Below, in pieces: positions 2,507 through 58,486 of a DNA stretch of 64,000 bases; positions within the stretch are counted from its first letter, which is position 1; each line of letters starts with the position of its first letter. Origin of the DNA: Clostridia bacterium (GTDB taxonomy: Bacteria > Bacillota > Clostridia > Oscillospirales > CAG-272). The position numbers and the translations under genes were made by a program. Location: the NCBI GenBank assembly GCA_017420755.1, contig JAFQOG010000032.1, forward strand, positions 5,013-69,012. Direction: 5' to 3'. The notes beneath the pieces were generated by a model. That model was not told where the DNA came from and did no database searches. It saw only the letters and a list, made by a program, of their open reading frames with translations.

Positions 2507-3388
2507 TTATTCTATAATTCCTTTTCCGCAAATCTTTACAAGGATGTCTTCAAGGTCGTCGTTGCCGTAGAAATCAATCTCCACAGTTGAAACCTTGCCA
2601 GTTGTTTTGATTTTAACGCGCTTGCCGGTGAGGTGCATTGCTTTCTTTTCAAGATCCTTTATGTAATCCACCTTGATTTCGTCGGTGCTTGGTGGAGTTA
2701 ACACGTCGCTTTTTTCAAAATCCCTGTTTAATTTTTTAACCAAATTTTCTGTATCACGAACGGAAAGTGATTTAACGAGGATTTGCTCTGCTGTTTCAAC
2801 AATAACGTCTTTGTTTTTAAGACCTAAGAGTGCACGTGCGTGACCTGCGGAAATGTCGCCTGTCTTGAGCATTTCAAGAACTTCCTCGGGTAGGTCGAGC
2901 AAACGCAAAGCGTTTGCGATGGCTGGACGAGATTTTCCAACCTTCTCTGCTACCTCTTCTTGGGTTAGGCTATATTGCTCTATAAGAGAATTATATGCGC
3001 TTGCTTCTTCGTATGCGTTCAAATCTTGGCGTTGAATGTTTTCAATAATTGCAATCTCTGCTGCCTTTAATGCATCAGCTTGGATGATTATTGCAGGAAT
3101 TTCAGTAAGACCTGCTAATTTTGACGCGCGCCATCTGCGCTCGCCCGCGATTATTTGATAATAATCTTTCGCGCTCTCGCGTACGATAATTGGCTGTAAT
3201 AAGCCGTGATTCTTTATTGAATCAGAAAGCTCAAGCAAGGATTCCTCGTCGAAATGCTTTCTTGGTTGATCCGATTTTGGTTCGATTTGTGAAATTCTCA
3301 ATGTTTGGATGCCCTCGTCTGCGGTGGCAACCTCAATATAATTGTCTGCAAAAATGGAATCAAGTCCACGTCCAAGACCTTTTTTCAT
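2507..3388 (-). CDS. parB: chromosome partitioning protein ParB/Spo0J
   Basis: N-terminal GLGRGLDSIF, ParB box IAGERRWRAS, and an HTH region LTQEEVAEKVGKSRPAIANALRLL. Directly downstream of parA. Confidence 0.93.
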   Translation of the reverse strand: MKKGLGRGLDSIFADNYIEVATADEGIQTLRISQIEPKSDQPRKHFDEESLLELSDSIKNHGLLQPIIVRESAKDYYQIIAGERRWRASKLAGLTEIPAIIIQADALKAAEIAIIENIQRQDLNAYEEASAYNSLIEQYSLTQEEVAEKVGKSRPAIANALRLLDLPEEVLEMLKTGDISAGHARALLGLKNKDVIVETAEQILVKSLSVRDTENLVKKLNRDFEKSDVLTPPSTDEIKVDYIKDLEKKAMHLTGKRVKIKTTGKVSTVEIDFYGNDDLEDILVKICGKGIIE

Positions 3389-3407
3389 GATTTTTTCTCC
3401 TTTTTAT

Positions 3408-4199
3408 TTATATTCCTTCGATTCTATATATTATTTCTTTGGCAACCTTCATATATTCGAGACTCGATTTTGAATATTTTGAGTAGTAATATAGTGGTTC
3501 TGCAAAGCTTGAAGATTCACTGATTACTACACTTCTTGAAATCTTTTGCTCGAAAATAATGTCAAAATAATAGTTTTCAAGTTCAGCCAACACCTCTTGT
3601 GACAGCTTGAATCTTGGTGTAAACATTGTGATTAGTATGCCTGTTATGTTTAAATTTGGATTATACCTGCTTTTTATCTGTTTTACACTCATCATCAGCT
3701 GCGTTAATCCTTCGAGTGCGAAATACTCGCATTGCGTTGGGATGATTAAACCGTTACTTGCAACTAATGCGTTGATTGTAATCATTCCAAGCGACGGTGG
3801 ACAATCAATTATAACATAATCGAAAAGATTTTCTTCGTCTAATTTTGACAAAATTCTTTTTAAGTATGATTCTCTTCCACCTTGCGTAGTTAGCTCTGAT
3901 TCAATGCTTGCGAGCGACATATTTGATGGAATCGTCCACAGGTTTTTGAAATTTGTTTCTACTATCGCTGCTTTTGCATCAATCTTTTGTGCTAAAACGT
4001 CGTAAACTGAGTGCTTAACCGAGTTTTTCGATATACCAAGAGCGCTTGTGGAGTTTGCTTGCGGGTCTAAATCCAAAAGCAAAACTCTCTTGCCAAGAAC
4101 TCCTAACATTGCAGCTGAGTTTAACGCAGATGTGGTTTTTCCAACTCCGCCCTTTTGGTTGGCAAATGAAATTACTTCCACGAAAGTGTTTCCTTTCAT
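3408..4199 (-). CDS. parA: ParA/Soj partition ATPase
   Basis: Deviant Walker A NQKGGVGKTT, plus DLDPQ and IDCPPSLG motifs. Confidence 0.93.
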   Translation of the reverse strand: MKGNTFVEVISFANQKGGVGKTTSALNSAAMLGVLGKRVLLLDLDPQANSTSALGISKNSVKHSVYDVLAQKIDAKAAIVETNFKNLWTIPSNMSLASIESELTTQGGRESYLKRILSKLDEENLFDYVIIDCPPSLGMITINALVASNGLIIPTQCEYFALEGLTQLMMSVKQIKSRYNPNLNITGILITMFTPRFKLSQEVLAELENYYFDIIFEQKISRSVVISESSSFAEPLYYYSKYSKSSLEYMKVAKEIIYRIEGI

Positions 4200-4295
4200 A
4201 TTGTTCTATAAAGAGTATATCACGCAATCTGCATAAAATCAATAGAAAATTTGCTAAAAACACCAAAAAATCGCGGGATTTTTGCTAAACAACCG

Positions 4296-4311
4296 TGTTT
4301 CACGTGAAACA
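4296..4311. promoter_or_regulatory. parS site (perfect TGTTTCACGTGAAACA)
   Basis: Exact 16-bp palindrome matching the Firmicute chromosomal parS consensus. Confidence 0.85.
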
Positions 4312-4374
4312 ATCGCTTTGTAAAGGCTTCCGTACCTGCTATCAAACCTCACCGTTTGGCTCTGATGATTTCAA

Positions 4375-4390
4375 TGTTTCACGTGAAACA
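4375..4390. promoter_or_regulatory. parS site (perfect)
   Basis: TGTTTCACGTGAAACA. Confidence 0.85.
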
Positions 4391-4475
4391 AAACGGACAA
4401 AGCAGAGAAGCAAACAGAAAAACATTTAGTGCAGAAAGATAAATTAAATTACTCGAGAGCACAATTGTTCCTCAA

Positions 4476-4491
4476 TGTTTCACGTGAAACA
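4476..4491. promoter_or_regulatory. parS site (perfect)
   Basis: TGTTTCACGTGAAACA. Confidence 0.85.
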
Positions 4492-4676
4492 AACAAAGAG
4501 AACACATCTTGTCCTCCTTTTTGATCAATCCGTCTTAAAAGCCTTAAGAATGAGGGGTGTGATGGCTACTACATGGCCGACTTTGCCTTGCGTGCGCTGG
4601 ATTGATATCATATGCTTGAAGCTGCGCGATTCGCAGCCTGCATTTTTTGCTACTTTCCAATAATTTAATCCTATGA

Positions 4677-4692
4677 TGTTTCACGTGAAACG
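4677..4692. promoter_or_regulatory. parS-like site (1 mismatch)
   Basis: TGTTTCACGTGAAACG. Confidence 0.7.
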
Positions 4693-4866
4693 CGCTTTAT
4701 GTATTTTCTTTGCGCTTTTTGGGCGTGGGTACTACTAATGGGGGAGCACAAAAACGACGGCAGAGAAGAGAGAATGGGCGCACTCTTTGTTCTTTTTGTT
4801 CTCTGCGCTCTGTTTTGTTACAGCAGTTGCTGTTTAGCCTGCTATTTCTGTTGATTATATATGACT

Positions 4867-4882: not shown

Positions 4883-5078
4883 AAAAAGAGAGTCTTACGA
4901 CTCTCTCTTAATTTACACTTGGCTAATGTGTTTAGCTAATGGCGCCTTTGCGATGCGTTGCTTTTAGGCCTTTTGCTGATAACCCTGTTGAAAACTATTT
5001 GAAAAATGTCGAAAAATGGAAAAATATGGAAAATTCGCGAAGCGTTAGCATAGCTAATGCCGAGATTTATGCGTGTTT

Positions 5079-5906
5079 CTACTTTTCAACCTCTTCAAAC
5101 ACGGTTGGAACGAGGATTGTCATTTCTATGTGACCATCGCCCTCTATTTTCCTGCTTTTTATTCTTATTCCGCTGTTGCTTGCTGTTTCGATTGCCCTGT
5201 TTAGCGCATCAAAAAAAGCATCGGTGCTTTTGTATGTCTTTTTCGTTGCTTCCTTTTTACTTTCGCCGGCGATGAATCTTTCAACTAACGCTTCGGCCTG
5301 TGAAACATTTAGATTGCTTTCCAAAATGATGTGGAGAGCTTTTCTTAGTCTCTCCTCGTCTTTTAATCTTAAAAGCGCGCGAGCGTGCCGTTCTGTCAGG
5401 TTGTTTTTAGTTATTATATTCCTTGTTTCCTTGTCGAGGCGGAGAAGTCTGAGCTTGTTTGCAACATATGACTGACTACACGATAATTTTGAAGCGATTT
5501 CTTCTTGGGTTAGGGAATATGTATCGATTAGAGCTTGAATCGCTTCTGCTTCCTCAAACGGGCTTAAATCCTCACGCATTAAATTTTCTATTATGGCTAT
5601 CTCGGCGCTTTCTGATTCCTTCGCACCTCTTATAACACAAGGAACGTGTGTAAAGCCAAGCTCGCAAGATGCACGCAGCCTGCGCTCACCTGAAATCAGC
5701 TCGTATCCTTCACTTGTTTCTCTTACAACTAATGGCTGTATTATGCCATAGCGCTTTATGCTATCAGCGAGACGTAAAATGGCGCTTTCGGCGAAGATTT
5801 TTCTTGGCTGGTTGGGGTTGGTGGCGATTTTTGCTATTGGTATGCTGATTATCTCGCTTGTTGCTTTGTCGCTTTGATTTTCTTGTACTTTTGCTTCTTT
5901 TTTCAT
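5079..5906 (-). CDS. ParB-family paralogue (Noc-like position upstream of parA)
   Basis: ORF 5079..6215. ATG at 5906 follows a GGAGA RBS. Motifs: ParB box ISGERRLRAS and HTH LTQEEIASKLSCSQSYVANKLRLL. The upstream 103 codons of the ORF look non-coding. Confidence 0.8.
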   Translation of the reverse strand: MKKEAKVQENQSDKATSEIISIPIAKIATNPNQPRKIFAESAILRLADSIKRYGIIQPLVVRETSEGYELISGERRLRASCELGFTHVPCVIRGAKESESAEIAIIENLMREDLSPFEEAEAIQALIDTYSLTQEEIASKLSCSQSYVANKLRLLRLDKETRNIITKNNLTERHARALLRLKDEERLRKALHIILESNLNVSQAEALVERFIAGESKKEATKKTYKSTDAFFDALNRAIETASNSGIRIKSRKIEGDGHIEMTILVPTVFEEVEK

Positions 5907-6298
5907 CTTTTTTTCTCCTTTCGCTTGGAAAGTACATTTCCATGTATATACTATCATTTCTCGACTGCTAAAAGCGTCGAATTGCGCGCAATTTGGACGA
6001 TTTTTTCGACAAATAGAGCTAAAATAGCATAAGTGAGCCAAGTTTGCAACAAAATCTGTTATAAAGCACCAAATTTCGCCCGGATTGCGTTTTGTTGCGA
6101 GAAAAAATAAAAATTGATTCTTAAAAGTGGTTGGTATGTATAAATATTGATTTTTAGCGCAAGCGTAAAAAACAAAATTCGAATACAGGGTCAAACAAAT
6201 ATAATTTTGACACACTGTTTTGATGAATAATTATAAAAGAAAAATCTTAAAACGTAAATAAATATTCAAAAATTGATTAAAATTATCCACAGGGTGCA

Positions 6299-6326
6299 GA
6301 AAAGCCAAGCAATAGCTCGGCTTTTC
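6299..6326 (-). terminator. putative terminator after the capsid gene
   Basis: Imperfect hairpin GAAAAGCCAAGC-aata-GCTCGGCTTTTC 16 nt 3' of the capsid stop. The short U-tract is shared with the stem. Confidence 0.45.
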
Positions 6327-6341
6327 AAAGAATTTACTTGA

Positions 6342-7184
6342 TTATTGGTACTTTACGTTGATGTTGATAATCTCCTTTGGTCTTACAACCTTGCCGTCGA
6401 AAAGAGCATAGCCCTTAACTGCGTCTGCAAAGGATTTTTCGGGTCTATACGCCTCTGTATATGTAACGGGGTTTACAAAGGCGATGGCGCGCTTTGTTCT
6501 AATCATGATGTTGTCGGTTTCGCCGTTGTTAGTTTTTGCAACGTTGTTTGAAATTTTTACGGTTACGTTACCGTATGTTGCAACCTTTCCGTTCTTCATT
6601 GCTTCTTTGTTGTCTGTTGCTCCGGTTGCGTATGCTTGCTTAAAGAGCTTGTAGAAGCGCGGAGAAACTGTAACGGTAACCCCACTTGTCATTGAAACGT
6701 CGTTTTCTTGAAGTGCTTGAATTGCGTCATCGAGAATCGAGAGTACGTTTTCCTTTGTTACGGTTGTGTCAGCTTGTGTAAGCTTTGATACGTCTGAATC
6801 GAGCACCATGTTAGCAATATACTTGTCGATTTCGTTAGCAAGACCCTCGCTTGTTTCCTCGGAAAGTGCATCCATGAGGCCGCCAATTGCTTGCGCCTTG
6901 TCGATGTCCCCAACCTTGTAGTTGAAGTATCTGATTTGATTGATGCCAAGAATTACAGAGGTGTCGTTGATTTCCTCTGCCTCGTCAATCAAGCCACTTG
7001 CGTTTTCTCTCTCGAGTGACTTGATTGTTGGCTTGCCTACACCGAGAATGTGAACGCTGTCGCCCTTCTTTGAAACTTCGCCTTCGTATTGTCTATTGCA
7101 GTCCTCTGCGAAGACACAAGCTCTTTCGAGCTCGCGATTGATTGATTCCGACCAAACTGATGGAATGAAATTTGAATATGCCAT
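6342..7184 (-). CDS. phage major capsid protein-like
   Basis: 280 aa. N-terminus MAYSNFIPSVWSESINRELE and the central ...ILDDAIQALQENDV...VSPRFYKLF... pattern are typical of HK97-fold coat proteins. The position after portal and scaffold fits. Confidence 0.65.
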   Translation of the reverse strand: MAYSNFIPSVWSESINRELERACVFAEDCNRQYEGEVSKKGDSVHILGVGKPTIKSLERENASGLIDEAEEINDTSVILGINQIRYFNYKVGDIDKAQAIGGLMDALSEETSEGLANEIDKYIANMVLDSDVSKLTQADTTVTKENVLSILDDAIQALQENDVSMTSGVTVTVSPRFYKLFKQAYATGATDNKEAMKNGKVATYGNVTVKISNNVAKTNNGETDNIMIRTKRAIAFVNPVTYTEAYRPEKSFADAVKGYALFDGKVVRPKEIININVKYQ

Positions 7185-51706: not shown

Positions 51707-52945
51707 TTATGAGTTAATTGAGTCCTTCTTTGACATAACGAAGGTCCAAATCGCAGTTGGCAAAACACTGATGACAAAGACACCAACCAAAATTATAATT
51801 TCAAGTGGATAAATTCTTCCAATATTCAAAACAACGCCCATTGATGAAACATAGTCGTTCATTAAAGCCAAGCAAATTCTTGAAAGACCAAATGCTAAAA
51901 TGGTGGAGAACAGTCCGATAATTGAGTTTTGAATCAAGTAAAGAAGATTGATTTTTTTCATGCTTATGCCAATCAAGCGCATAAGCGATATTTCCTTTGA
52001 GGAATGGTACATATTAAGCAGAGTGATAATAGAAATTATCATTATGTTCATTATAAGAATAACTGCGCAAAGCACAAAAACAATATATTTTGTGTTGTCA
52101 GCGTCATTTAAAACATCTCTTACCGCGTCCATTGGGGAAATTGCCTGCAAGGAAATCGGGTTTTCGCCATCCCCCTCTATAACCTTGCCGTTATATTTTT
52201 CAATAATTGACATAGCAACTGAGGGGTTCTTTGCGCGAACCAAAACAGCACAAACTGTTTTTGAGTGATTGTGCGCTTCCTCGCCTTGGTGTGAGTCGTG
52301 ACTCTCGCTTGCGTGTTCATTTTCCGACTCGTGTTCTTCACCGTGGTCGTGTAAATCCCAAAGACTGCGAATCTGCGTGAAAACAACAGTATCAAAGGAG
52401 GAGTATGTTCTTTCTAATATACCAACAACAGTAAGACCCTTTTCGTGGGTTTGTCCCCCTGTTGCTGAGTGGCTTGTGTAAAGGGTGTCACCAACCTTTA
52501 AGCCGTTTTCCTTAGCCACGCGATAACCAATAACCGCTTCAAAGGAGCCGTGTTCTTTAAACATTTCTCCGCTGGAAAGCTCCTTGTCCTTTAAATAGGT
52601 TGGGGTTGTTCCAACAACGCTTGAGCCGTTATAGTTGTCAGCCATAGCAAATGGAACAGCCTCGCGCACGTTATTATCTTGGCTTAATTCTGTAACCACG
52701 GAGTAGGGAATAGTGCCAAGAGGCGCATCAGAAAAATACATCGAGTTCATAGCAAGCTGAGTCTTGCTACCAGACGGGCCGACAATAACTGAATAGTATT
52801 GAGCATTTTTTGAAATTCCATCGCTAACCTGATTTGAAACATTGAAGGCAAGCACGGCAATTCCGGCAGAAAGTATAATTGAAATAACGACCAAAATAAT
52901 CTGCACCTTTTTGATTGCCATATTTTTAAGAGCGAAGCGTATCAT
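51707..52945 (-). CDS. FtsX/MacB-type ABC permease with a His-rich extracytoplasmic insert
   Basis: TM1, large loop, then three C-terminal TMs. Insert HDHGEEHESENEHASESHDSHQGEEAHNHS. Confidence 0.7.
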   Translation of the reverse strand: MIRFALKNMAIKKVQIILVVISIILSAGIAVLAFNVSNQVSDGISKNAQYYSVIVGPSGSKTQLAMNSMYFSDAPLGTIPYSVVTELSQDNNVREAVPFAMADNYNGSSVVGTTPTYLKDKELSSGEMFKEHGSFEAVIGYRVAKENGLKVGDTLYTSHSATGGQTHEKGLTVVGILERTYSSFDTVVFTQIRSLWDLHDHGEEHESENEHASESHDSHQGEEAHNHSKTVCAVLVRAKNPSVAMSIIEKYNGKVIEGDGENPISLQAISPMDAVRDVLNDADNTKYIVFVLCAVILIMNIMIISIITLLNMYHSSKEISLMRLIGISMKKINLLYLIQNSIIGLFSTILAFGLSRICLALMNDYVSSMGVVLNIGRIYPLEIIILVGVFVISVLPTAIWTFVMSKKDSINS

Positions 52946-53607
52946 AAGAGCGCCTCCCCCTCGGGCTTAATATCAAAAAGCCCGCTTGTCATTTTGTTCA
53001 TATCAATAACGCAGTCGAAATACTTAGCCAAGCGCTCATCATGCGTTACAGCAATTAAGGTTTTGCCCCTTGAAATTTCGGAAAGAGCCTTAATAACCTC
53101 CTCGCCAACCTCGAAATTCAAGTTACCCGTTGGCTCATCAGCAAGAATTATGTCTGGCATTTTTACAATAGCGCGAGCAATAGCAACCCTTTGCTTTTGT
53201 CCGCCGGAAAGATGCTTTATTTTTGCATTTCTTTTTTCGTAAATTCCAAGAGCTTTAAGAATCTCTGGTGCGCGCGAGGTGTCAACACCCTCAAGACGCA
53301 AAATATTTATGTTATCCATAACGTTCATATCGTTAATGAGCTTGAAATCTTGAAAAATGTATCCGATTTTTTGGATTCTGAATTTGTCCTTTTCCTTTTG
53401 GCTCTTGCTTGTCATATTGCTTCCGTCAATGATTATAGAGCCTGAGGTGGGCGACAAAACGCCCGCAATAATGTTCAAAAGAGTTGATTTTCCACAGCCG
53501 GATGCACCAAGGAGCATATAGGATTTACCGTTTTCAAAGGTGATATCGCTATAATTGATGGCTGTCTCATTTTGAAACTGCTTTGTTAAATTTTTTACCT
53601 CTATCAT
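52942..53607 (-). CDS. ABC transporter ATP-binding protein (MacB/LolD-like)
   Basis: ATG at 53607. GASGCGKST, LSGGQKQRVAIARA, ILADEPTGNLN. Confidence 0.88.
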   Translation of the reverse strand: MIEVKNLTKQFQNETAINYSDITFENGKSYMLLGASGCGKSTLLNIIAGVLSPTSGSIIIDGSNMTSKSQKEKDKFRIQKIGYIFQDFKLINDMNVMDNINILRLEGVDTSRAPEILKALGIYEKRNAKIKHLSGGQKQRVAIARAIVKMPDIILADEPTGNLNFEVGEEVIKALSEISRGKTLIAVTHDERLAKYFDCVIDMNKMTSGLFDIKPEGEALL

Positions 53608-53649
53608 TTTTATTCCTTTCTTTGTTTTAAATTTGAAAAACAAAGAAAA

Positions 53650-53937
53650 TCAATTAGATAGCTTTACCCTTAGCTTTATAGGGGATGGTTTTGTTATTAT
53701 TACAAAAGCTAAAGAGAAGGCAACGCACAAAAATGCACAAGCTGTGAAAAATAGAGAAGCAGAAGACACAAAGAAAAATTCGCCCTTATTATTGCTTGAA
53801 AGCAATGCGCAAAATTGACAAAGCTCATTGTCACAACAGCAAGCGTGCCCAATTTCCAAGAAAATAGAGAAAACAGAAAAAGCCATAGCAAAAGCTAAGA
53901 CAAGCGCAATGATAAGTAAAATACGATTGCGTTTCAT
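53650..53937 (-). CDS. small Cys-rich membrane protein
   Basis: 95 aa, 2-3 hydrophobic segments, GHACCCDNELCQFC cluster. First gene of the ABC operon. Confidence 0.45.
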   Translation of the reverse strand: MKRNRILLIIALVLAFAMAFSVFSIFLEIGHACCCDNELCQFCALLSSNNKGEFFFVSSASLFFTACAFLCVAFSLAFVIITKPSPIKLRVKLSN

Positions 53938-54139: not shown

Positions 54140-54215
54140 TGGGATGTAGCCAAGCGGTAAGGCACCAGACTTTGACTCTGGCATTTCGATGGTTCGAACC
54201 CATCCATCCCAGCCA
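54140..54215 (+). tRNA. tRNA-Gln (TTG), encoded CCA
   Basis: Hand-folded: acceptor TGGGATG/CATCCCA, anticodon stem CCAGA/TCTGG with loop CTTTGAC, T-arm GATGG-TTCGAAC-CCATC. Confidence 0.88.
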
Positions 54216-54285
54216 AAACAAAAAGGACACCAAATCGGTGTCCTTTTTGTTTTGCCCGGAACGTAGTGTTTGACCACTTTGTGTT
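54208..54285 (+). repeat. direct repeat, left copy (last 8 nt of tRNA-Gln, terminator, 35 nt)
   Basis: 78/78 identity with 57479-57556, aligned by hand. Confidence 0.85.
54219..54250 (+). terminator. terminator of tRNA-Gln
   Basis: GGACACC-aaatc-GGTGTCC followed by TTTTT. Confidence 0.75.
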
Positions 54286-54305
54286 GCGTCGCAACACAAA
54301 TGTGG
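54274..54305 (+). repeat. conserved hairpin of the repeat family (copy C1)
   Basis: CCACTTTGTGTTGC-gtc-GCAACACAAA(T)GTGG. Confidence 0.6.
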
Positions 54306-54503
54306 TTCGCAAGTCCGACTAAAGCCGTTGTCGGCTTGCCAGCAAAAGGCTAGTCGAGACTCTTTGCCAAAGGCAAAGCCTCCATCCATCCCAGCGGGTG
54401 TTAGCACCATACTAAATTGAGAGGGCGCATGCTCAAAGGACACCACGCCGCACTTGCGTCAAGGGGGTCCTCAAAACGAAGTATGAGTTTTGGGGATCAC
54501 AAA

Positions 54504-54555
54504 TTGCAAGGATACGCCGTGGCCAAAAGCCTCGCCTGTGGCGAGAAGCCAGCCG
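54504..54555 (+). repeat. palindromic-unit repeat (module P)
   Basis: TTGCAAGGATACGCCGTGGCCAAAAGCCTCGCCtgtGGCGAGAAGCCAGCCG. Near-identical copy at 57610-57661. Confidence 0.7.
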
Positions 54556-54824
54556 TAGAATATCTCGTTCTGCTTAGGCGAAGCCGAGCCGACTTGTATA
54601 AGACAAGCGCACGCCCTGTTTACACGTTTCACACAAACATTGACTCAATGCTTTCAAAACCTTTTTCATTGTTAGCACGTTGTTTCTTATTATGAAAACA
54701 TTGCAAAAATCGGTTTCTTTAACAGTTGAATAAATTTTTGAAATAAGACAAAATCAAATGCTCCAGTTTTTTATAATTTTTGATGTATTTTTCATGAAAT
54801 TTGGGCATAATTTTAAAAAAACTA

Positions 54825-54853
54825 TTGATTTTTTCTTTTTTTTAGATTAAAAT
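54825..54853 (+). promoter_or_regulatory. sigma70-type promoter of the cassette
   Basis: TTGATT, 17-nt spacer, TAAAAT, about 20 nt upstream of the first RBS. Confidence 0.55.
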
Positions 54854-54872
54854 ACAAAAGGAGGATTACTTC

Positions 54873-56036
54873 GTGAGATCCGAAGAAATAAGCAAAAGGA
54901 GAACTTCCATGATTGTTTTAAATGTAAAACTAAACAATTTATATGCATTTAAAAATTTCAATGCAAACTTTACTTATCCAAAAAAAATTGTTGGCTCTAC
55001 AATAAAAGATGAATTTTTGCCTGAGCGCCCTAATTTTAGGTATAAAAAGATTAATGTTTTTTTGGGAGCAAATGCTTCTGGTAAAACTACATTTGGTGTA
55101 ATATTGAGAAAGATTTTCAATTTTATTGATAAGAAAAACTACGAGCTTATTACAGATGCAATTTGTGACAAAAGCAAAGAAGCAACTTTTGTGATTGATT
55201 TAGCATCTAAAAATAATATTTTTTATCGAGTAATTTGTAATATTGAACCATGTATAGATACAAAATACTCATTTGAAAACATAAAACTTGAAATTCGAAA
55301 AGAAAACATATCGTTGAAAGATAGTTACGAATCGTGTGTTAAAAGAATTGAGAATCGCGAGTTTAATCCTGCAGAAAACTATATTACTGAATTGGAACAA
55401 ATCGAAGAACTCGCATGGTTGTTTGTTCATCCACGTTCCAATCAAATAGTATTTGATCTTCCAAATAAGGATCAAAAATTTTGTTTTCTCCTTGAAAAGG
55501 TTTTGAAATCACTAGATCCATCTATACAAAGTGTAGACGTTTCAAGTGAAGTTGACAATGCTTATGTAATTAGATTTCAAGAAAAATCAATTGTGTTACA
55601 AAATGATCAAAGAATAGACGATACATCTTTTTTATCAAGTGGAACGCGATCTGGTATAGTTATATCTCAAACATTGTACTCTCTTATGCAAGGACGTAAT
55701 AGTTTTTATTATTGTGATGAAAAGTTTTCGTTTATTCACAGTGATATTGAAAAAGCTATATTATCCCTTATGATCGACTTCGTTGGACCATGTGATCAAT
55801 TATTCTTTACCACTCACAATACCGATGTTTTAGATATGGATTTGCCCAAGCATACATTTAGTTTTCTTAGGAAAAATGTGAATAATTTTGAATGTCCCAT
55901 AACTTATGTAGAAGCATCTTCACTGTTAAAAAGAAGTACAGACTCGCTAAGAAATGCAGTTGAAAATGATTTATTTTTGTCTGCTCCTTCTACAGAACTG
56001 ATTTACTCCATTGCAAATTTGAAACGTAAGGAGTAA
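54873..56036 (+). CDS. ABC/SMC-type (AAA_21-like) ATPase, defence-associated architecture
   Basis: Walker A GANASGKTT, signature-like LSSGTRS, Walker B FYYCDE, H-loop FFTTHN. GTG at 54873 or, perhaps better, ATG at 54909 (AAGGAGA RBS). Confidence 0.75.
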   Translation: MRSEEISKRRTSMIVLNVKLNNLYAFKNFNANFTYPKKIVGSTIKDEFLPERPNFRYKKINVFLGANASGKTTFGVILRKIFNFIDKKNYELITDAICDKSKEATFVIDLASKNNIFYRVICNIEPCIDTKYSFENIKLEIRKENISLKDSYESCVKRIENREFNPAENYITELEQIEELAWLFVHPRSNQIVFDLPNKDQKFCFLLEKVLKSLDPSIQSVDVSSEVDNAYVIRFQEKSIVLQNDQRIDDTSFLSSGTRSGIVISQTLYSLMQGRNSFYYCDEKFSFIHSDIEKAILSLMIDFVGPCDQLFFTTHNTDVLDMDLPKHTFSFLRKNVNNFECPITYVEASSLLKRSTDSLRNAVENDLFLSAPSTELIYSIANLKRKE

Positions 56037-56041
56037 TCAAA

Positions 56042-56566
56042 ATGAAGAACACAAATATTCTATACTTCGTTGAAGGGGAAGATGAGAAAAAACTTGTAAA
56101 CGTTTTAAAAGCAGAGCTTAAACTGATTAAGGCAGGAAAGGTTCAAGTGTTAAATGTAGTTGAAGAGATAATTACAGATGCCATGCTTAGACCTTTAAAA
56201 AAAGATACCACTGTTGTGTTGGTGTTTGACACGGATACAAGAAATGTTGGCATTCTAAATTACAATATTTTAAGGCTGAAAGAATGTAATGCTGTGTCTA
56301 AAATAATTACAATTCCGCAAGTTGCAAACTTGGAAGACGAGTTGATACGCAGTTGTAACATCAAAAAAATTACAGACCTATTAAATAGTCCTTCTTTAAC
56401 TGATTTTAAACGTGATTTTATTAGGATCAATAATTTGAATGCTAAACTGATAGAACGCAAATTCGACATTGATGTTTTGTGGAGTCAAAAACCACCTATT
56501 TTATATCAAAATATTGATATAGAAAACAATTCAAAAGAAATAAAATTGTTTAAAAACAAAAAATAG
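56042..56566 (+). CDS. minimal TOPRIM-like protein (RloB/OLD-type motifs)
   Basis: 174 aa. ILYFVEGEDE (TOPRIM Glu) and VVLVFDTDT (DxD). Starts 5 nt after the ATPase stop. Confidence 0.6.
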   Translation: MKNTNILYFVEGEDEKKLVNVLKAELKLIKAGKVQVLNVVEEIITDAMLRPLKKDTTVVLVFDTDTRNVGILNYNILRLKECNAVSKIITIPQVANLEDELIRSCNIKKITDLLNSPSLTDFKRDFIRINNLNAKLIERKFDIDVLWSQKPPILYQNIDIENNSKEIKLFKNKK

Positions 56567-56613
56567 AAAAGTTGCTCTTGTGAGGAGCATCATTTAATAG
56601 ACAAGGAGAGATT

Positions 56614-57447
56614 ATGCCTATTTTTAATAAAACAATTCAATTGTTTATTTTTGAAGGGAATCCTAATGGCAGAATAATGTGTGAACTTTCAAATTGGAAT
56701 GGAAGAGTTTATAAAATTGCACGTAACCAATTATCAGAGTTTTCACAACGCACAGACAGTACATATACGGGAGTTTATTTTTTATTTGGGAAAGATGAGA
56801 ATAATACCACTACTATATATATAGGCGAAGCAGAAAACATTTTAACTAGATTAAAGCAACATTTGAATGATGATGTTTATTGGAATGAATGCGTTATTGT
56901 AATCAGCAACAATGATAGTTTAAACAAGGCTCATGTAAAATTCCTTGAAAATAAATTTTACCTTCTTGCCAAAGATGCCAACAGATCTAAAATTATTAAC
57001 GGAACAATTCCCACATGTTCATCAGTATCGGAATACGATCAAGCTATGCTTGAAGAGTTTATAGATAATGCAAAGTTACTTGTTGCTACATTGGGTTACA
57101 AATCTTTTGAAACGTTAGAACCTCAAATCGAAGAAACTATAAAGTTTTATATTTCTGCTGCAAGAGGAGCCGAAGCTGTTGGAACCATTGTAAGTGATGG
57201 CTTTATTGTTTTTAAAGGATCTACCGTTGCTTCATCTACTACATCTAGCATGTCTGATAATTTGAAAAACTTTAGAGCTAAACTTTATGCTGATGGAATT
57301 ATAGATTCTAATAATAAATTTGTTGAAGATTATCTGTTTTCAAGCCCATCCTACGCAGCAGCCATCGTTATGGGTCGCAATGCAAATGGCAAAACCGAAT
57401 GGAAAACGTCTGATCGTCAGAATATACACGATATAGAATCACAATGA
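56614..57447 (+). CDS. GIY-YIG nuclease with DUF4357-like C-terminal domain
   Basis: GVYFLFG...TIYIGEAENILTRLKQH...KFLENKF. C-terminal FSSPSYAAAIVMGRNANGKTEWK. AAGGAGAG RBS. Confidence 0.7.
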   Translation: MPIFNKTIQLFIFEGNPNGRIMCELSNWNGRVYKIARNQLSEFSQRTDSTYTGVYFLFGKDENNTTTIYIGEAENILTRLKQHLNDDVYWNECVIVISNNDSLNKAHVKFLENKFYLLAKDANRSKIINGTIPTCSSVSEYDQAMLEEFIDNAKLLVATLGYKSFETLEPQIEETIKFYISAARGAEAVGTIVSDGFIVFKGSTVASSTTSSMSDNLKNFRAKLYADGIIDSNNKFVEDYLFSSPSYAAAIVMGRNANGKTEWKTSDRQNIHDIESQ

Positions 57448-57478
57448 ATCTAATTCGGTTCAAATTACAAACAAAATG

Positions 57479-57556
57479 CCCAGCCAAAACAAAAAGGACA
57501 CCAAATCGGTGTCCTTTTTGTTTTGCCCGGAACGTAGTGTTTGACCACTTTGTGTT
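57479..57556 (+). repeat. direct repeat, right copy
   Basis: 78/78 identity with 54208-54285. Includes a second copy of the tRNA terminator hairpin, which would terminate the cassette. Confidence 0.85.
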
Positions 57557-57578
57557 TGCTCTGCAAACGCAAATGTGG
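57545..57578 (+). repeat. conserved hairpin of the repeat family (copy C2)
   Basis: CCACTTTGTGTTTGC-tct-GCAAACGCAAA(T)GTGG. The extra T/A pair relative to C1 is compensated. Confidence 0.6.
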
Positions 57579-57609
57579 TTCGTTCTTTTGCCCATAAGGC
57601 GTTCTCTGC

Positions 57610-57661
57610 TTGCAAGGATAAGCCGCGGGCAAAAGCCTCGCCTATGGCGAGAAGCCATCCG
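57610..57661 (+). repeat. palindromic-unit repeat (module P)
   Basis: TTGCAAGGATAAGCCGCGGGCAAAAGCCTCGCCtatGGCGAGAAGCCATCCG. Confidence 0.7.
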
Positions 57662-57718
57662 CCTTGTATCTTTTCTTTTTGCAGCGCAAAAAGCCTCCAT
57701 CCATCCCATCTAATAGAT

Positions 57719-57745
57719 AAGCCACTCGTTGCGAGTGGCTTTTTA
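57719..57745 (+). terminator. Rho-independent terminator
   Basis: GCCACTCG-ttg-CGAGTGGC followed by TTTTT. Confidence 0.65.
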
Positions 57746-57748
57746 AAT

Positions 57749-58486
57749 TCATTTAAACACAATCTCGTTTACGATGTCGCAGATTTTAGCGCACAGTGTT
57801 TGGTCTAAGTCCTTAAATGGCGAAGGGGATACTGGCTTATTTGTTAGGGTGGCAAGCCAGGTAAGGGCAACGGCATATCTTCCGTAGGTGCGTGACATAT
57901 GGAAGCCGTCGAGGCAGAGGGACTCACCGCCGTTTTTATAGTCAAACTCGGGCAAGCGTGTGCGCAGTGCTTGGATTACATCGCCTGATAAAATAGGGGA
58001 AAGCCCTGTTTTTTCGCGCACTATCTTCGCAACATCGCAAATTGAGGCGTACATTTTTTCCTGATTGCAGTCGTAAAGATAAAACTCACTATGAGTTGAG
58101 TCAATTTCATACGCCCAGGTTTTGTGGAAATAAAGCTTAGCCTCTGGCTGATGCTTTTTTACGTAGTCAATTAGGTTATTTAAGTAAGGCTGATAAGTTT
58201 CGTATTGTCCTGAAAAATGGCTCACCTGCTGAAGCGTTACCACGTCAAATTTTTCACTCTTTATTATTTCGTCAACGGTGACAAGTGGGTCGCCCCAGCC
58301 GTTGTCGTTTATTAAGTGGAGATATTTTGGGCTGTTTGACTCTATGTTTTCCCAGTGCGTTTGTAGGCTACAACCACCGATTGCAAGGTTAACCGCAGTT
58401 ATTTCGTATCCTGCCTCCTTTGCAAGCATGCTCAAATACGCATGTGCGTCAACTGAAAAGCTGTTGCCAATAGATAAAATTTTCAT
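57749..58486 (-). CDS. DUF4886/SGNH-hydrolase-like protein
   Basis: MKILSIGNSFSVDAHAYL... N-terminus is typical of the family. Confidence 0.65.
   Translation of the reverse strand: MKILSIGNSFSVDAHAYLSMLAKEAGYEITAVNLAIGGCSLQTHWENIESNSPKYLHLINDNGWGDPLVTVDEIIKSEKFDVVTLQQVSHFSGQYETYQPYLNNLIDYVKKHQPEAKLYFHKTWAYEIDSTHSEFYLYDCNQEKMYASICDVAKIVREKTGLSPILSGDVIQALRTRLPEFDYKNGGESLCLDGFHMSRTYGRYAVALTWLATLTNKPVSPSPFKDLDQTLCAKICDIVNEIVFK

Follow-up and report, generated by a model that had tools for sequence, protein, structure and literature searches.

Three co-oriented genes, referred to here as g1, g2 and g3, occupy an AT-rich islet of 3.3 kb adjoining a tRNA-Gln gene in a 64,000-nucleotide stretch of DNA from a Clostridia bacterium (this whole stretch is called the window below). 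The question raised by this locus is whether the three genes make up a single anti-phage system. An earlier note, made from the sequence alone, had hesitated between a divergent member of a known family and a new three-gene combination; the first option holds for g1 and g2, which are a divergent pair of a known class, but the second is contradicted by the surveys of homologous loci presented below. It seems likely that the locus is a mobile islet carrying two functionally independent defence-type modules, namely a g1-g2 pair of the AbiL/PARIS class and g3 as a PDC-S14 candidate. The defence role of both modules is suggested by homology and genomic context.

The islet and its slot beside tRNA-Gln

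An ORF check of the window recovered g1 (54873..56036), g2 (56042..56566) and g3 (56614..57447) on the + strand, separated by 5 nt (g1-g2) and 47 nt (g2-g3), with all the motifs that had been quoted for them. They are real genes and not chance ORFs, since g1 has 1979 homologues in sequence searches, g2 has 684 and g3 matches a PADLOC model at 1e-103. The GC content of the cassette is 0.310 vs 0.398 for the window, which places it in the lowest 0.8% among equal-sized windows. The adjoining tRNA-Gln gene (anticodon TTG; 54140..54215, + strand) was identified with ARAGORN and Rfam (tRNA, 63 bits, E 1.4e-12), and its final 8 nt are the start of the left copy of a perfect 78-nt direct repeat (54208..54285, + strand), delimited by repeat search and pairwise alignment. 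This left copy reads CCCAGCCA, followed by a terminator-type hairpin (arms 54209-54231 / 54237-54259) and then by the flank. The right copy (57479..57556, + strand; repeat search, sequence and alignment) carries the corresponding hairpin (arms 57480-57502 / 57508-57530) followed by a T-run, 32 nt past the g3 stop, and this hairpin is probably the operon terminator. In the pairwise alignment the likeness between both copies runs about 25 nt beyond the perfect 78 nt, so that a repeat of about 100 nt overall brackets the islet at tRNA-Gln. The description of the region as a tRNA-linked, repeat-bounded and AT-rich islet was thus accurate.

The left repeat is followed by a non-coding leader without assigned strand (54286..54824), defined by repeat search, alignment and comparison with relatives. 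Its GC-rich part (54286-54620) has a 90% partial copy at 57610-57661, a piece resembling a tRNA 3' end lies within it at 54380-54396, and from about 54519 onward the leader travels with the cassette in relatives. The Rfam search of the leader matched no family. Next comes the promoter-like site TTGATT-17 nt-TAAAAT (54825..54853, + strand, 5' of g1; 9/12 matches in a consensus scan). The site proposed in the earlier note is therefore present, but the AT-rich stretch contains 26 promoter-like sites vs 13.5 +/- 4.1 in shuffles, so it is not statistically distinctive. At this locus, g1, g2 and g3 are probably co-transcribed.

On the right, the variable slot is bordered by a flanking core gene of the DUF4886 family (57749..58486, - strand; Pfam DUF4886 1.3e-63) that is syntenic in three related loci (L161, L205 and L207). 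In one of them (L161), the same tRNA-Gln slot holds unrelated, defence-type cargo, including PDC-S31 at 4e-31. The cassette is also more conserved than its flanks in relatives (97.4 vs 84.8% and 85.6 vs 68.8% nucleotide identity). Most probably, a small mobile islet occupies a variable slot that extends from tRNA-Gln to the DUF4886 gene.

The ATPase and its small TOPRIM-like partner

The start of g1 is ambiguous: the protein has 387 aa from the GTG at 54873 or 375 aa from the ATG at 54909, Shine-Dalgarno sequences precede both codons and gene callers give both lengths. In the numbering of the 387-aa protein, the profile matches examined start at residues 7-13, and a phage homologue starts at the residue equivalent to M13. 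Motif searches on the + strand located the Walker A GANASGKTT (aa 65-73; 55065-55091), the signature-like LSSGTRS (aa 254-260; 55632-55652), about 180 residues further on, the Walker B FYYCDE (aa 278-283; 55704-55721) and the H-loop TTHN (aa 313-316; 55809-55820). An alignment of 48 g1 homologues shows the residues of Walker A, of the signature and of Walker B as invariant and the H-loop histidine as nearly so. The assignment of g1 to the AAA_15/AAA_21 type of ABC ATPases, in keeping with the AAA_21 style named in the earlier note, agrees with the Pfam match (AAA_21), with a PDB profile match to the SMC3 head (4.8e-4) and with the AF2 model (pLDDT 82), for which Foldseek returned 125 matches at E 1e-3 or better, among them PtuA (7e-10) and SMC and Rad50 heads (1e-9 to 1e-10). 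The PADLOC library ranks AbiLi (PDLC02335; E 2e-24, 84 bits) above mad3 and AriA as the best of 21 matches, and the alignment pairs g1 residues 7-372 with positions 43-285 of the 326-position model. Hence, g1 is an ABC/SMC-type ATPase with every ABC ATPase motif and an ABC head fold.

The g2 protein, of 174 aa, has a TOPRIM-like core that covers residues 1-105 or so and is followed by a short C-terminal part of helical nature. It contains VEGEDE (aa 10-15; 56069-56086), VFDTDT (aa 61-66; 56222-56239), IPQVANLEDEL (56312-56344) and the conserved K123 (inside 56405-56416), all on the + strand. Its family counts 684 homologues, or 829 clusters at 50% identity, and the homologues listed are all small, most of them about 170 aa; no Pfam domain covers it. 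Nine residues are invariant over 68 diverse members (E11, G12, G32, D63, D65, E98, E100, K123 and W147) and E15 is near-invariant. The series E11, (E15), G32, D63xD65, E98xE100 and K123 parallels in order E400, E404, a Gly, D455xD457, T506/E508 and K562 of BpOLD, whose active-site residues and TOPRIM domain definition were used for the comparison (PMC6755086). In the alignment, the acidic residues and the lysine of g2 thus succeed one another as they do in the two-metal TOPRIM active site of OLD. The AF2 model (pLDDT 93.7) has an alternating beta-alpha core in which E11 is predicted directly after the strand formed by residues 5-10 and D63xD65 at the end of the strand 56-63, as expected for the TOPRIM superfamily.

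Profile matches point in the same direction. The Pfam model OLD-like_TOPRIM_1 was matched by 27/45 close members (best 4e-4) and OLD-like_TOPRIM by 6/68 diverse members (2.8e-4), all of them sub-threshold, as were matches to Toprim_2. In PADLOC, AbiLii was matched by 23 of the 68 diverse members (best 2.3e-6) and by 4/45 of the close ones, and several members matched the HEC-01B (best 1.2e-4) or GajA models. The copy in the window gave no significant match to Pfam TOPRIM models or PDB sequence profiles, and its alignment with AbiLii is poor and not significant (E 0.022). Foldseek searches of the g2 model against PDB and BFVD likewise gave no significant match (best E 0.017 and 0.009, respectively): the top matches are generic alpha/beta folds with a TM of about 0.3, and a few are primase TOPRIM domains with probabilities of 0.7-0.8. 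An hhalign comparison with P2 Old placed VEGEDE on VEGKTE and FDTD on ADCD, though not significantly (E 0.053). Motifs and weak but consistent profile matches, without a significant fold match, thus argue for a minimal OLD-type TOPRIM-like protein, which would be a nuclease effector.

Contrary to the link with g3, that between g1 and g2 is highly conserved. A g1 relative lies directly upstream of the g2 relative in 79/80 species-level loci, the sole exception being interrupted by a contig end; the gap ranges from -11 to +36 nt (median 17) and both are separate genes in 79/79 loci. Clustering of the flanking ORFs of the 80 loci revealed no conserved third partner. In a phage, the pair sits between the terminase and portal genes, and in a prophage it precedes the terminase. 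Further copies are carried by elements with an integrase or recombinase and by a mobilizable plasmid of Acinetobacter, or have genes for a Type I HsdR, a KAP NTPase and Fic as neighbours; for some (L199), the surroundings are housekeeping genes and no mobile-element gene is close by. Therefore, g1 and g2 form an obligatory, tightly spaced two-gene pair.

The GIY-YIG nuclease and the interpretation of the locus

The third gene encodes a stand-alone protein of 277 aa in which both domains that had been recognised by eye were matched above their Pfam gathering scores (GIY-YIG 1.2e-4, C-terminal DUF4357 1.2e-16). The GVY...YIG motif lies at aa 53-71. The PADLOC model PDC-S14 PDLC04925 is matched at 1.2e-103, with residues 4-275 aligned on model positions 15-295 of 301, and four further PDC-S14 models also match; other similarities are to phrog_12629 (1e-77) and, weakly, to the RAMA domain (0.0028). 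The catalytic set of GIY-YIG nucleases comprises the Tyr of GIY, the Tyr-x-Gly of YIG, an Arg, a Glu and an Asn. The 70 aligned sequences, which share 46-76% identity with g3, all keep Y55, Y69, G71, R79, E112 and N129; judging from this alignment, g3 retains the full catalytic residue set. Flanking ORF clustering over 79 loci found no conserved partner of g3 homologues. Consequently, g3 is a full-length member of the catalogued single-gene candidate PDC-S14 and an independent module. The literature searched contained no paper reporting a test of PDC-S14.

Several scenarios may explain the association of these genes. In a genuine three-gene system, the ATPase would sense infection and jointly control the TOPRIM and GIY-YIG nucleases. 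The co-orientation, the short gaps and the lack of a strong terminator in the g2-g3 interval are consistent with it, as are the relatives in which the trio is intact with the same spacing (L205-L207; g2 at 99% and 88% identity): within this narrow clade (g2 identity of at least 88%), the three genes travel together as one islet. Yet, no g3 homologue was found at the g1-g2 loci (0/80) and, in the reciprocal survey, no g1 or g2 homologue at the g3 loci (0/79). A conserved third partner is missing from both modules, the pair is found by itself in phage, prophage, plasmid and integrative elements, and g3 belongs to a single-gene candidate family. Moreover, g3 is truncated in a close relative (L208) in which g2 persists, as does g1 as far as it is visible, namely its C-terminal two-thirds. 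These observations lead us to reject a new three-gene system, which appears very improbable. The three-gene novelty considered in the earlier note fails by that note's own refuting condition: g1-g2 fall in a described two-gene class and g3 is an unrelated neighbour. The juxtaposition of g3 and the pair is recent and lineage-specific, and the three genes do not make up a functional trio, although some local functional interplay may exist inside the clade at or above 88% identity.

The function of the pair may also be read in other ways. One possibility is that g1-g2 works mostly as a selfish module, for addiction (toxin-antitoxin-like) or for competition between elements, and that it would stabilise or arm the phages and mobile elements bearing it instead of defending the host. 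Its carriage by phage, prophage, a mobilizable plasmid and elements that encode an integrase or recombinase would be congruent with this, and PARIS formally behaves as a toxin-antitoxin pair and is often encoded by phages or satellites (PMC13064643, PMC11464382). Nevertheless, such a module is compatible with a defence role, for which the molecular mechanism would be identical, and the copies among housekeeping genes do not fit it well; as the main function of the pair, it seems unlikely. Another possibility is that g2 is not a nuclease but a small, catalytically unrelated alpha/beta adaptor, flavodoxin- or Rossmann-like, and that the pair is non-nucleolytic, acting for instance in recombination as a RecF/RecR-like mediator or as a regulatory ATPase complex. 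RecF, the partner of RecR, is an ABC/SMC-like ATPase. The generic Foldseek matches of g2 and the silence of sequence profiles for the window's copy agree with an adaptor, RecR is a TOPRIM-domain protein (PMC10568477, PMC6755086) and g1 has a match to RecF (0.022), albeit a trivial one limited to the Walker A. On the other hand, the nine invariant residues include five acidic ones and a lysine in the OLD two-metal order, family members repeatedly match OLD-like TOPRIM, AbiLii, HEC-01B and GajA models, the partner ATPase is AbiLi-like and the patchy, mobile-element-borne distribution is unlike that of housekeeping repair genes, all of which makes an adaptor quite improbable.

The two-module interpretation is therefore retained. 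By analogy with PARIS, a g1 ATPase oligomer would keep the small g2 nuclease inactive and sense a phage product in an ATP-dependent way; g2 would then be released or activated, cut nucleic acid (tRNA or DNA) and stop the infection, probably at a cost to the cell. This mechanism is an extrapolation from PARIS. Independently, the DUF4357 of g3 may serve as a nucleic-acid recognition module and its GIY-YIG domain, with intact catalytic residues, could cleave foreign DNA. More tentatively, the g2 family might represent a distinct minimal OLD-type TOPRIM effector lineage that, together with its dedicated 375-aa ATPase, would make up a subtype of its own in split ATPase-TOPRIM immunity, having a particular trigger and target, and the tRNA-Gln slot might be a site of integrase-free exchange of small defence cassettes bounded by hairpin repeats. 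Taken jointly, these proposals are possible rather than probable; if they were true, a separate ATPase-TOPRIM subtype would be widespread in gut Clostridia and their phages.

Relationship to known systems

The comparison is simplest for g3, which has the same GIY-YIG and DUF4357 architecture as PDC-S14, with no difference detected. The DUF4357 domain also occurs fused to GmrSD and McrB-type Type IV restriction proteins (PMC4619093, PMC11090510), with which g3 shares this accessory domain; in contrast to them, its nuclease is a GIY-YIG and not DUF262/DUF1524 or McrC, and it is devoid of GTPase or NTPase. The domain and its weak RAMA likeness suggest a recognition module coupled to the nuclease; a dependence of g3 on DNA modification could be proposed purely by inference from this analogy.

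The g1-g2 pair probably belongs to the known class that combines an ABC ATPase with a stand-alone TOPRIM nuclease (AbiL, PARIS, HEC-01, RloAB). In the OLD nucleases of Class 1 (P2 Old) and of Class 2 (GajA of Gabija), too, an ABC ATPase acts jointly with a nuclease of the TOPRIM type. The invariant residues of g2 correspond to the catalytic set of BpOLD (including the DxD and E508), and the g2 family weakly matches OLD-like_TOPRIM and GajA. However, both domains reside there in one protein of about 580 aa, whereas g1 and g2 are separate genes, and neither the clustering of the 80 loci nor six Pfam-annotated neighbourhoods revealed a UvrD-like GajB or helicase gene recurring beside the pair. 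Membership in OLD/Gabija was rejected on these grounds. In HEC-01 (Hma-embedded candidate), the ABC ATPase HEC-01A and the TOPRIM protein HEC-01B, with a conserved OLD-like metal site, are likewise separate, and no protection was seen in published assays (10.1101/2024.01.29.577857). Several g2 members match HEC-01B, but g1 matches HEC-01A only marginally (0.0066-0.03) and the Pfam-annotated g1-g2 loci are not inside Hma systems.

PARIS (AriA and AriB), a proposed Class 4 OLD-like system, resembles the pair in having an AAA_15/21 ABC ATPase together with an effector nuclease of the TOPRIM type in separate genes and in its frequent location on phages and satellites (PMC13064643, PMC11464382). 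Its ATPase scaffold senses the trigger in an ATP-dependent way and releases the nuclease, which cleaves tRNA (PMC11464382), a plausible mechanistic template for g1-g2. Nevertheless, g1 matches the AriA models far more weakly (3.5e-7 to 7.5e-6) than AbiLi, and g2, as small as the earlier note had stressed, is far below the 35-kDa AriB (PMC11464382), about half its size. Neither AriB (PADLOC) nor DUF4435, the AriB domain (among the Pfam matches listed), was found when g2 and the sets of 45 and 68 family members were scanned. With AriA not the best match and AriB/DUF4435 absent, membership in PARIS was rejected.

The closest catalogued relative is AbiL, an analogy that the earlier note had drawn and that the AbiLi match of g1, spanning most of both sequences, bears out. 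The AbiLii model, with 170 positions, is near the size of g2. RloB, which we take to be the Pfam family that includes AbiLii, was absent from the Pfam matches listed for the g2 members scanned (45 and 68). AbiL of Lactococcus lactis is a two-gene operon encoding an ABC/Rad50-like ATPase and then a small TOPRIM/OLD-like protein, and has been grouped with PARIS as an ABC ATPase and TOPRIM system (PMC13064643). The published AbiLi/PARIS-i superposition covers 453 aa (PMC13064643), more than the 375-387 aa of g1. Since the AbiLii match of the g2 copy in the window stays short of significance, a two-gene call in the style of PADLOC would probably miss this system and, as far as these alignments indicate, g1-g2 is a divergent relative of AbiL and not a textbook AbiL.

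Organization of the islet and variability of its tRNA-Gln slot

Three co-oriented open reading frames are present at 54873-57447 of the window, as an earlier note describing a candidate anti-phage cassette had claimed, and all the motifs attributed to them were found in their translations. The first (g1, 54873-56036) encodes an ATPase of 387 aa from a GTG codon, or of 375 aa from an in-frame ATG at 54909, each start codon (GTG 54873 and ATG 54909) being preceded by its own Shine-Dalgarno sequence. It contains GANASGKTT (aa 65-73), LSSGTRS (254-260), FYYCDE (278-283) and TTHN (313-316); some 180 residues separate the Walker A motif from the signature. The second (g2, 56042-56566) starts 5 nt past the g1 stop and encodes a 174-aa protein with the motifs VEGEDE (aa 10-15) and VFDTDT (61-66). 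The third (g3, 56614-57447; 277 aa) starts 47 nt past g2 and includes a GVY...YIG pair. The promoter proposed for the three genes (TTGATT, 17 nt, TAAAAT) does exist at 54825-54853, but it carries little weight on its own because the AT-rich stretch is so full of promoter-like sites (26 versus 13.5 +/- 4.1 in shuffles, about twofold).

The description of the context as tRNA-linked, repeat-bounded and AT-rich also holds. A tRNA-Gln gene lies at 54140-54215, a perfect 78-nt direct repeat (54208-54285 and 57479-57556) brackets the genes, and the GC content of the cassette (0.310 against 0.398 for the window) is within the lowest 0.8% of equal-sized windows. Of the tRNA, the right copy of the repeat retains just the final 8 nt, together with a terminator hairpin and some 25 additional nt. 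No exact occurrence of the bounding repeat turned up among species-representative genomes. When the islet and its flanking DNA were scanned with Rfam, the tRNA was the sole match; nothing thus points to an RNA antitoxin or a retron-like non-coding RNA.

Some features around the genes deserve separate mention. The left repeat is followed by GC-rich (about 50%) non-coding DNA (54286-54620), of which a partial copy is found on the right, within 57557-57702 (54504-54555 versus 57610-57661, 90% identity); no Rfam family corresponds to this DNA. Pieces resembling tRNA 3' ends occur on both sides (CCTCCATCCATCCCAGC at 54380-54396 and CCTCCATCCATCCCATC at 57686-57702); the copy and these pieces may be scars of earlier insertions. 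Directly upstream of the tRNA, the minus strand of 51707-53937 carries an ABC-transporter-like pair, judged by eye from the translations to be an ATP-binding protein and a large membrane permease, and a small ORF (53650-53937) for a Cys-rich membrane peptide without Pfam match. These are ordinary-looking neighbours outside the islet.

The closest syntenic genome (L161) shares with the window both the tRNA-Gln and the DUF4886 gene, whose product is 88% identical. The slot between them (54140-58486 in the window, 8001-12630 in L161) is occupied there by about 3.5 kb of unrelated DNA bounded by a 31-nt hairpin repeat and encoding a PDC-S31/DUF2971 protein (4e-31), a wHTH-HATPase_c-DUF4325 protein and a 189-aa unknown protein. 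A recombinase gene is absent from both the islet and the L161 version of the slot. The tRNA-Gln to DUF4886 interval is a variable hotspot; its swappable defence-type cargo and lack of a recombinase make it a modest yet clear-cut case of a defence hotspot.

On metagenomic contigs whose g2 is 99% or 88% identical, the three genes are kept in the same arrangement; two of these contigs (L205 and L207) also show the same slot, and another (L206) ends just past g3. When 372-3373 of L205 and 146-3077 of L207 are compared with 54519-57525 of the window, nucleotide identity is higher in the cassette than in the adjacent core gene (97.4 versus 84.8% and 85.6 versus 68.8%), which suggests that related genomes have recently exchanged the whole islet horizontally at this same position. 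In a further relative (L208, g2 at 80% identity; 1304-1576), a rearrangement junction cuts the g3 homologue short after some 60 residues; g2 is complete there, and the C-terminal two-thirds of g1 are retained, the rest being cut by the contig start. The three genes are hence a lineage-specific juxtaposition, transferred together as a single DNA segment, and not a conserved functional unit.

Neighbourhoods of the pair and of the nuclease

The association between the genes was surveyed in both directions. The forward survey comprised 80 loci from species-representative genomes with a g2 relative at 43-63% identity, most of them from Clostridia (Acutalibacteraceae, Oscillospiraceae, Lachnospiraceae) and a minority from a few Bacteroidaceae, Succinimonas, Sphaerochaeta, Phascolarctobacterium and Melainabacteria. 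A g1 homologue lies directly upstream of g2 in 79 of these loci, the remaining one ending at a contig edge, and the gap between both genes ranges from -11 to +36 nt (median 17). Not one of the 80 has a g3 homologue within 7 kb, and the clustering of all flanking ORFs revealed no conserved third gene. A tyrosine-integrase family recurs in 8 loci; the other recurring clusters, where example coordinates were checked, correspond to antisense ORFs inside g1 or g2. Reciprocally, homologues of g1 and g2 are missing from all 79 loci with a g3 relative, flanking-ORF clustering found no conserved partner for g3, and a different tyrosine-integrase family recurs in 7 of them. The ATPase and g2 form one module and g3 is outside it. 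The possibility of a new three-gene combination, raised in the earlier note, must consequently be abandoned: what was found is essentially the outcome that the note itself had named as contrary to it, namely that g1 and g2 belong to an already described two-gene class and that g3 is an unrelated neighbour. The attractive but wrong reading of a two-nuclease trio is corrected to two independent modules sharing an islet.

The pair occurs on its own in diverse and often mobile settings. In the human-gut Caudoviricetes phage NatCom_17901 (PV036423.1), it is a reverse-oriented insert (4905-6504; 40% and 39% identity) between the large terminase and portal genes, and a prophage copy (L201/L202) is located just ahead of the terminase. 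Other copies are found in elements with an integrase, Xis, a resolvase or a serine recombinase, adjoining a Type I HsdR, a KAP NTPase and Fic, in the vicinity of a C5 methylase and a HepT/MNT pair, and once amid housekeeping genes. A tblastn search of plasmids with g2 gave no match. A distant pair, in which the ATPase has 416 aa (30% identity) and the partner 174 aa (25% identity), is present at 3001-4788 of a mobilizable 12.7-kb plasmid of the gammaproteobacterium Acinetobacter piscicola (NZ_CP048664.1), and the module therefore crosses phyla.

The nuclease g3 is a plain member of PDC-S14, a PADLOC single-gene candidate, which it matches over its whole length (1.2e-103). It also matches phrog_12629 (1e-77) and, in Pfam, DUF4357 (1.2e-16) and GIY-YIG, and the GIY-YIG catalytic positions (Y55, Y69, G71, R79, E112 and N129) are invariant in 70 aligned sequences. 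DUF4357 has been recorded as accessory to Type IV restriction proteins of the GmrSD and McrB types, and to GIY-YIG and T5orf172 nucleases (PMC4619093, PMC11090510). In g3, DUF4357 would recognise nucleic acid and the GIY-YIG domain would cleave it in the manner of a restriction enzyme. A weak RAMA match had suggested a role linked to restriction-modification, but this was rejected because the annotated recurrent neighbours are not methylases: apart from the integrases, they are guaA, an ABC-F ATPase, HTH proteins and a 23S-rRNA-IVP protein. Among the papers searched, those that mention PDC-S14 describe a genome, relate phage resistance to the defence systems present by correlation, or deal with the ecology of the gut virome, and none appears to be a functional test.

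The ATPase and its small partner

As the earlier note stated, g1 is an ABC/SMC-type ATPase resembling those met repeatedly in defence systems, which both profile and structure matches show. In Pfam, it matches AAA_21 just over the threshold as well as AAA_15; in PADLOC, it matches AbiLi (PDLC02335) across nearly its full length (2e-24) and, more weakly, mad3 (2.8e-8), AriA (3.5e-7) and then HEC-01A, NsnB and PtuA. Its 1979 homologues are mostly 370-390 aa long, and an alignment of 48 of them shows invariant Walker A Gly and Lys, SSGT signature and Walker B D-E, and a nearly invariant H-loop His. The family profile matches SMC3 heads in the PDB from the signature to the H-loop (4.8e-4), and the AlphaFold model (pLDDT 82) has 125 structure matches at E 1e-3 or better, including Septu and retron PtuA, SMC heads and Rad50 (7e-10 to 1e-7). 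It also matches phrog_5836 (1e-41), yet the match spans just positions 3-410 of the 1071 in that profile, and some phage relatives may thus be much longer fusion proteins.

The nature of g2 is less immediate. The window protein has no significant match in Pfam, NCBIfam or PADLOC (AbiLii, 0.022 only) and matches the unannotated phage family phrog_10204 (8e-14). The family is large (684 homologues in a 90%-clustered collection, 829 representatives at 50% identity in an exhaustive profile search); the homologues listed are all small, about 165-185 aa when full-length, and none has a precomputed Pfam domain. Across 68 diverse members (25-56% identity to the window protein), an acidic and lysine constellation is conserved: E11, G12, G32, D63, D65, E98, E100, K123 and W147 are invariant, and Y8, E15, N38, T64 and N75 nearly so. 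In the AlphaFold model (pLDDT 93.7, pTM 0.88), whose core alternates strands and helices, E11 comes right behind strand 1, strand 3 ends with D63xD65, and the helix that succeeds strand 4 opens with E98xE100. This order matches the catalytic set of the Burkholderia OLD nuclease, made up of the TOPRIM glutamates E400 and E404, an invariant Gly, D455xD457, T506/E508 in the following helix and K562 in the helical domain (PMC6755086).

Sequence support for the TOPRIM assignment is weak but consistent. OLD-like_TOPRIM_1 is matched by 27 of 45 close members (best 4e-4) and further ones match DUF3226 and Toprim_2, while 23 of the 68 diverse members match AbiLii (best 2.3e-6) and several match HEC-01B (best 1.2e-4), GajA and OLD-like_TOPRIM. 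The alignment of the family with P2 Old by hhalign is not significant (E 0.053); its best pairing, in the C-terminal region of Old, places VEGEDE on VEGKTE and FDTD on ADCD. The family HMM consensus reaches only Toprim_2 at 0.071 in Pfam, the family profile gives only spurious matches to PDB sequences (ribosomal protein L38, mannose-phosphate isomerase), and Foldseek searches of PDB and BFVD with the model yielded no match reaching E 1e-3, the top matches being generic alpha/beta folds. A homologue search with the divergent Acinetobacter partner returned only 7 close unannotated relatives and no bridge to RloB. Taken together, these data make a minimal OLD-type TOPRIM nuclease the very probable identity of g2. 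The family is noteworthy for its size, its compactness and its absence from Pfam, and g2 for its missing fold match.

Possible mode of action and relation to known systems

In PARIS, AriB is bound by a hexamer of AriA; ATP-dependent sensing of the phage protein Ocr by AriA leads to the release of AriB, which dimerises and cuts tRNA-Lys (PMC11464382). By analogy, g1 could act as sensor and scaffold and g2 as the released or activated nuclease, with tRNA or DNA as its potential target, a tentative reading that we regard as somewhat doubtful. If the 174-aa g2 is indeed an active nuclease restrained by g1, the pair would offer a compact model of how an ABC ATPase controls the OLD-type effectors of the AbiL, PARIS and HEC-01 group.

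Among known systems, PARIS, Gabija/OLD, Septu, MADS and Menshen were rejected as the identity of the pair, since their ATPase matches are far weaker than that of AbiLi and their partner proteins are absent. In particular, the AriB/DUF4435 effector of PARIS is lacking, and the parts that are fused in OLD/Gabija are encoded here by separate genes, with no recurring helicase neighbour. HEC-01, a related ATPase and TOPRIM candidate, gave no protection in published assays (10.1101/2024.01.29.577857). AbiL has been grouped with PARIS as ABC-ATPase and TOPRIM systems (PMC13064643, PMC11464382), and g1 clearly matches AbiLi, whereas AbiLii is matched only at the level of the g2 family. Since g2 has no Pfam domain and the window copy falls below the AbiLii model, this large family is mostly missed by current annotation, and AbiL-like systems are probably under-counted in gut Clostridia and their phages. 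The g1-g2 pair is most aptly placed in the known ABC-ATPase and TOPRIM class, as a divergent member of its AbiL-like branch.
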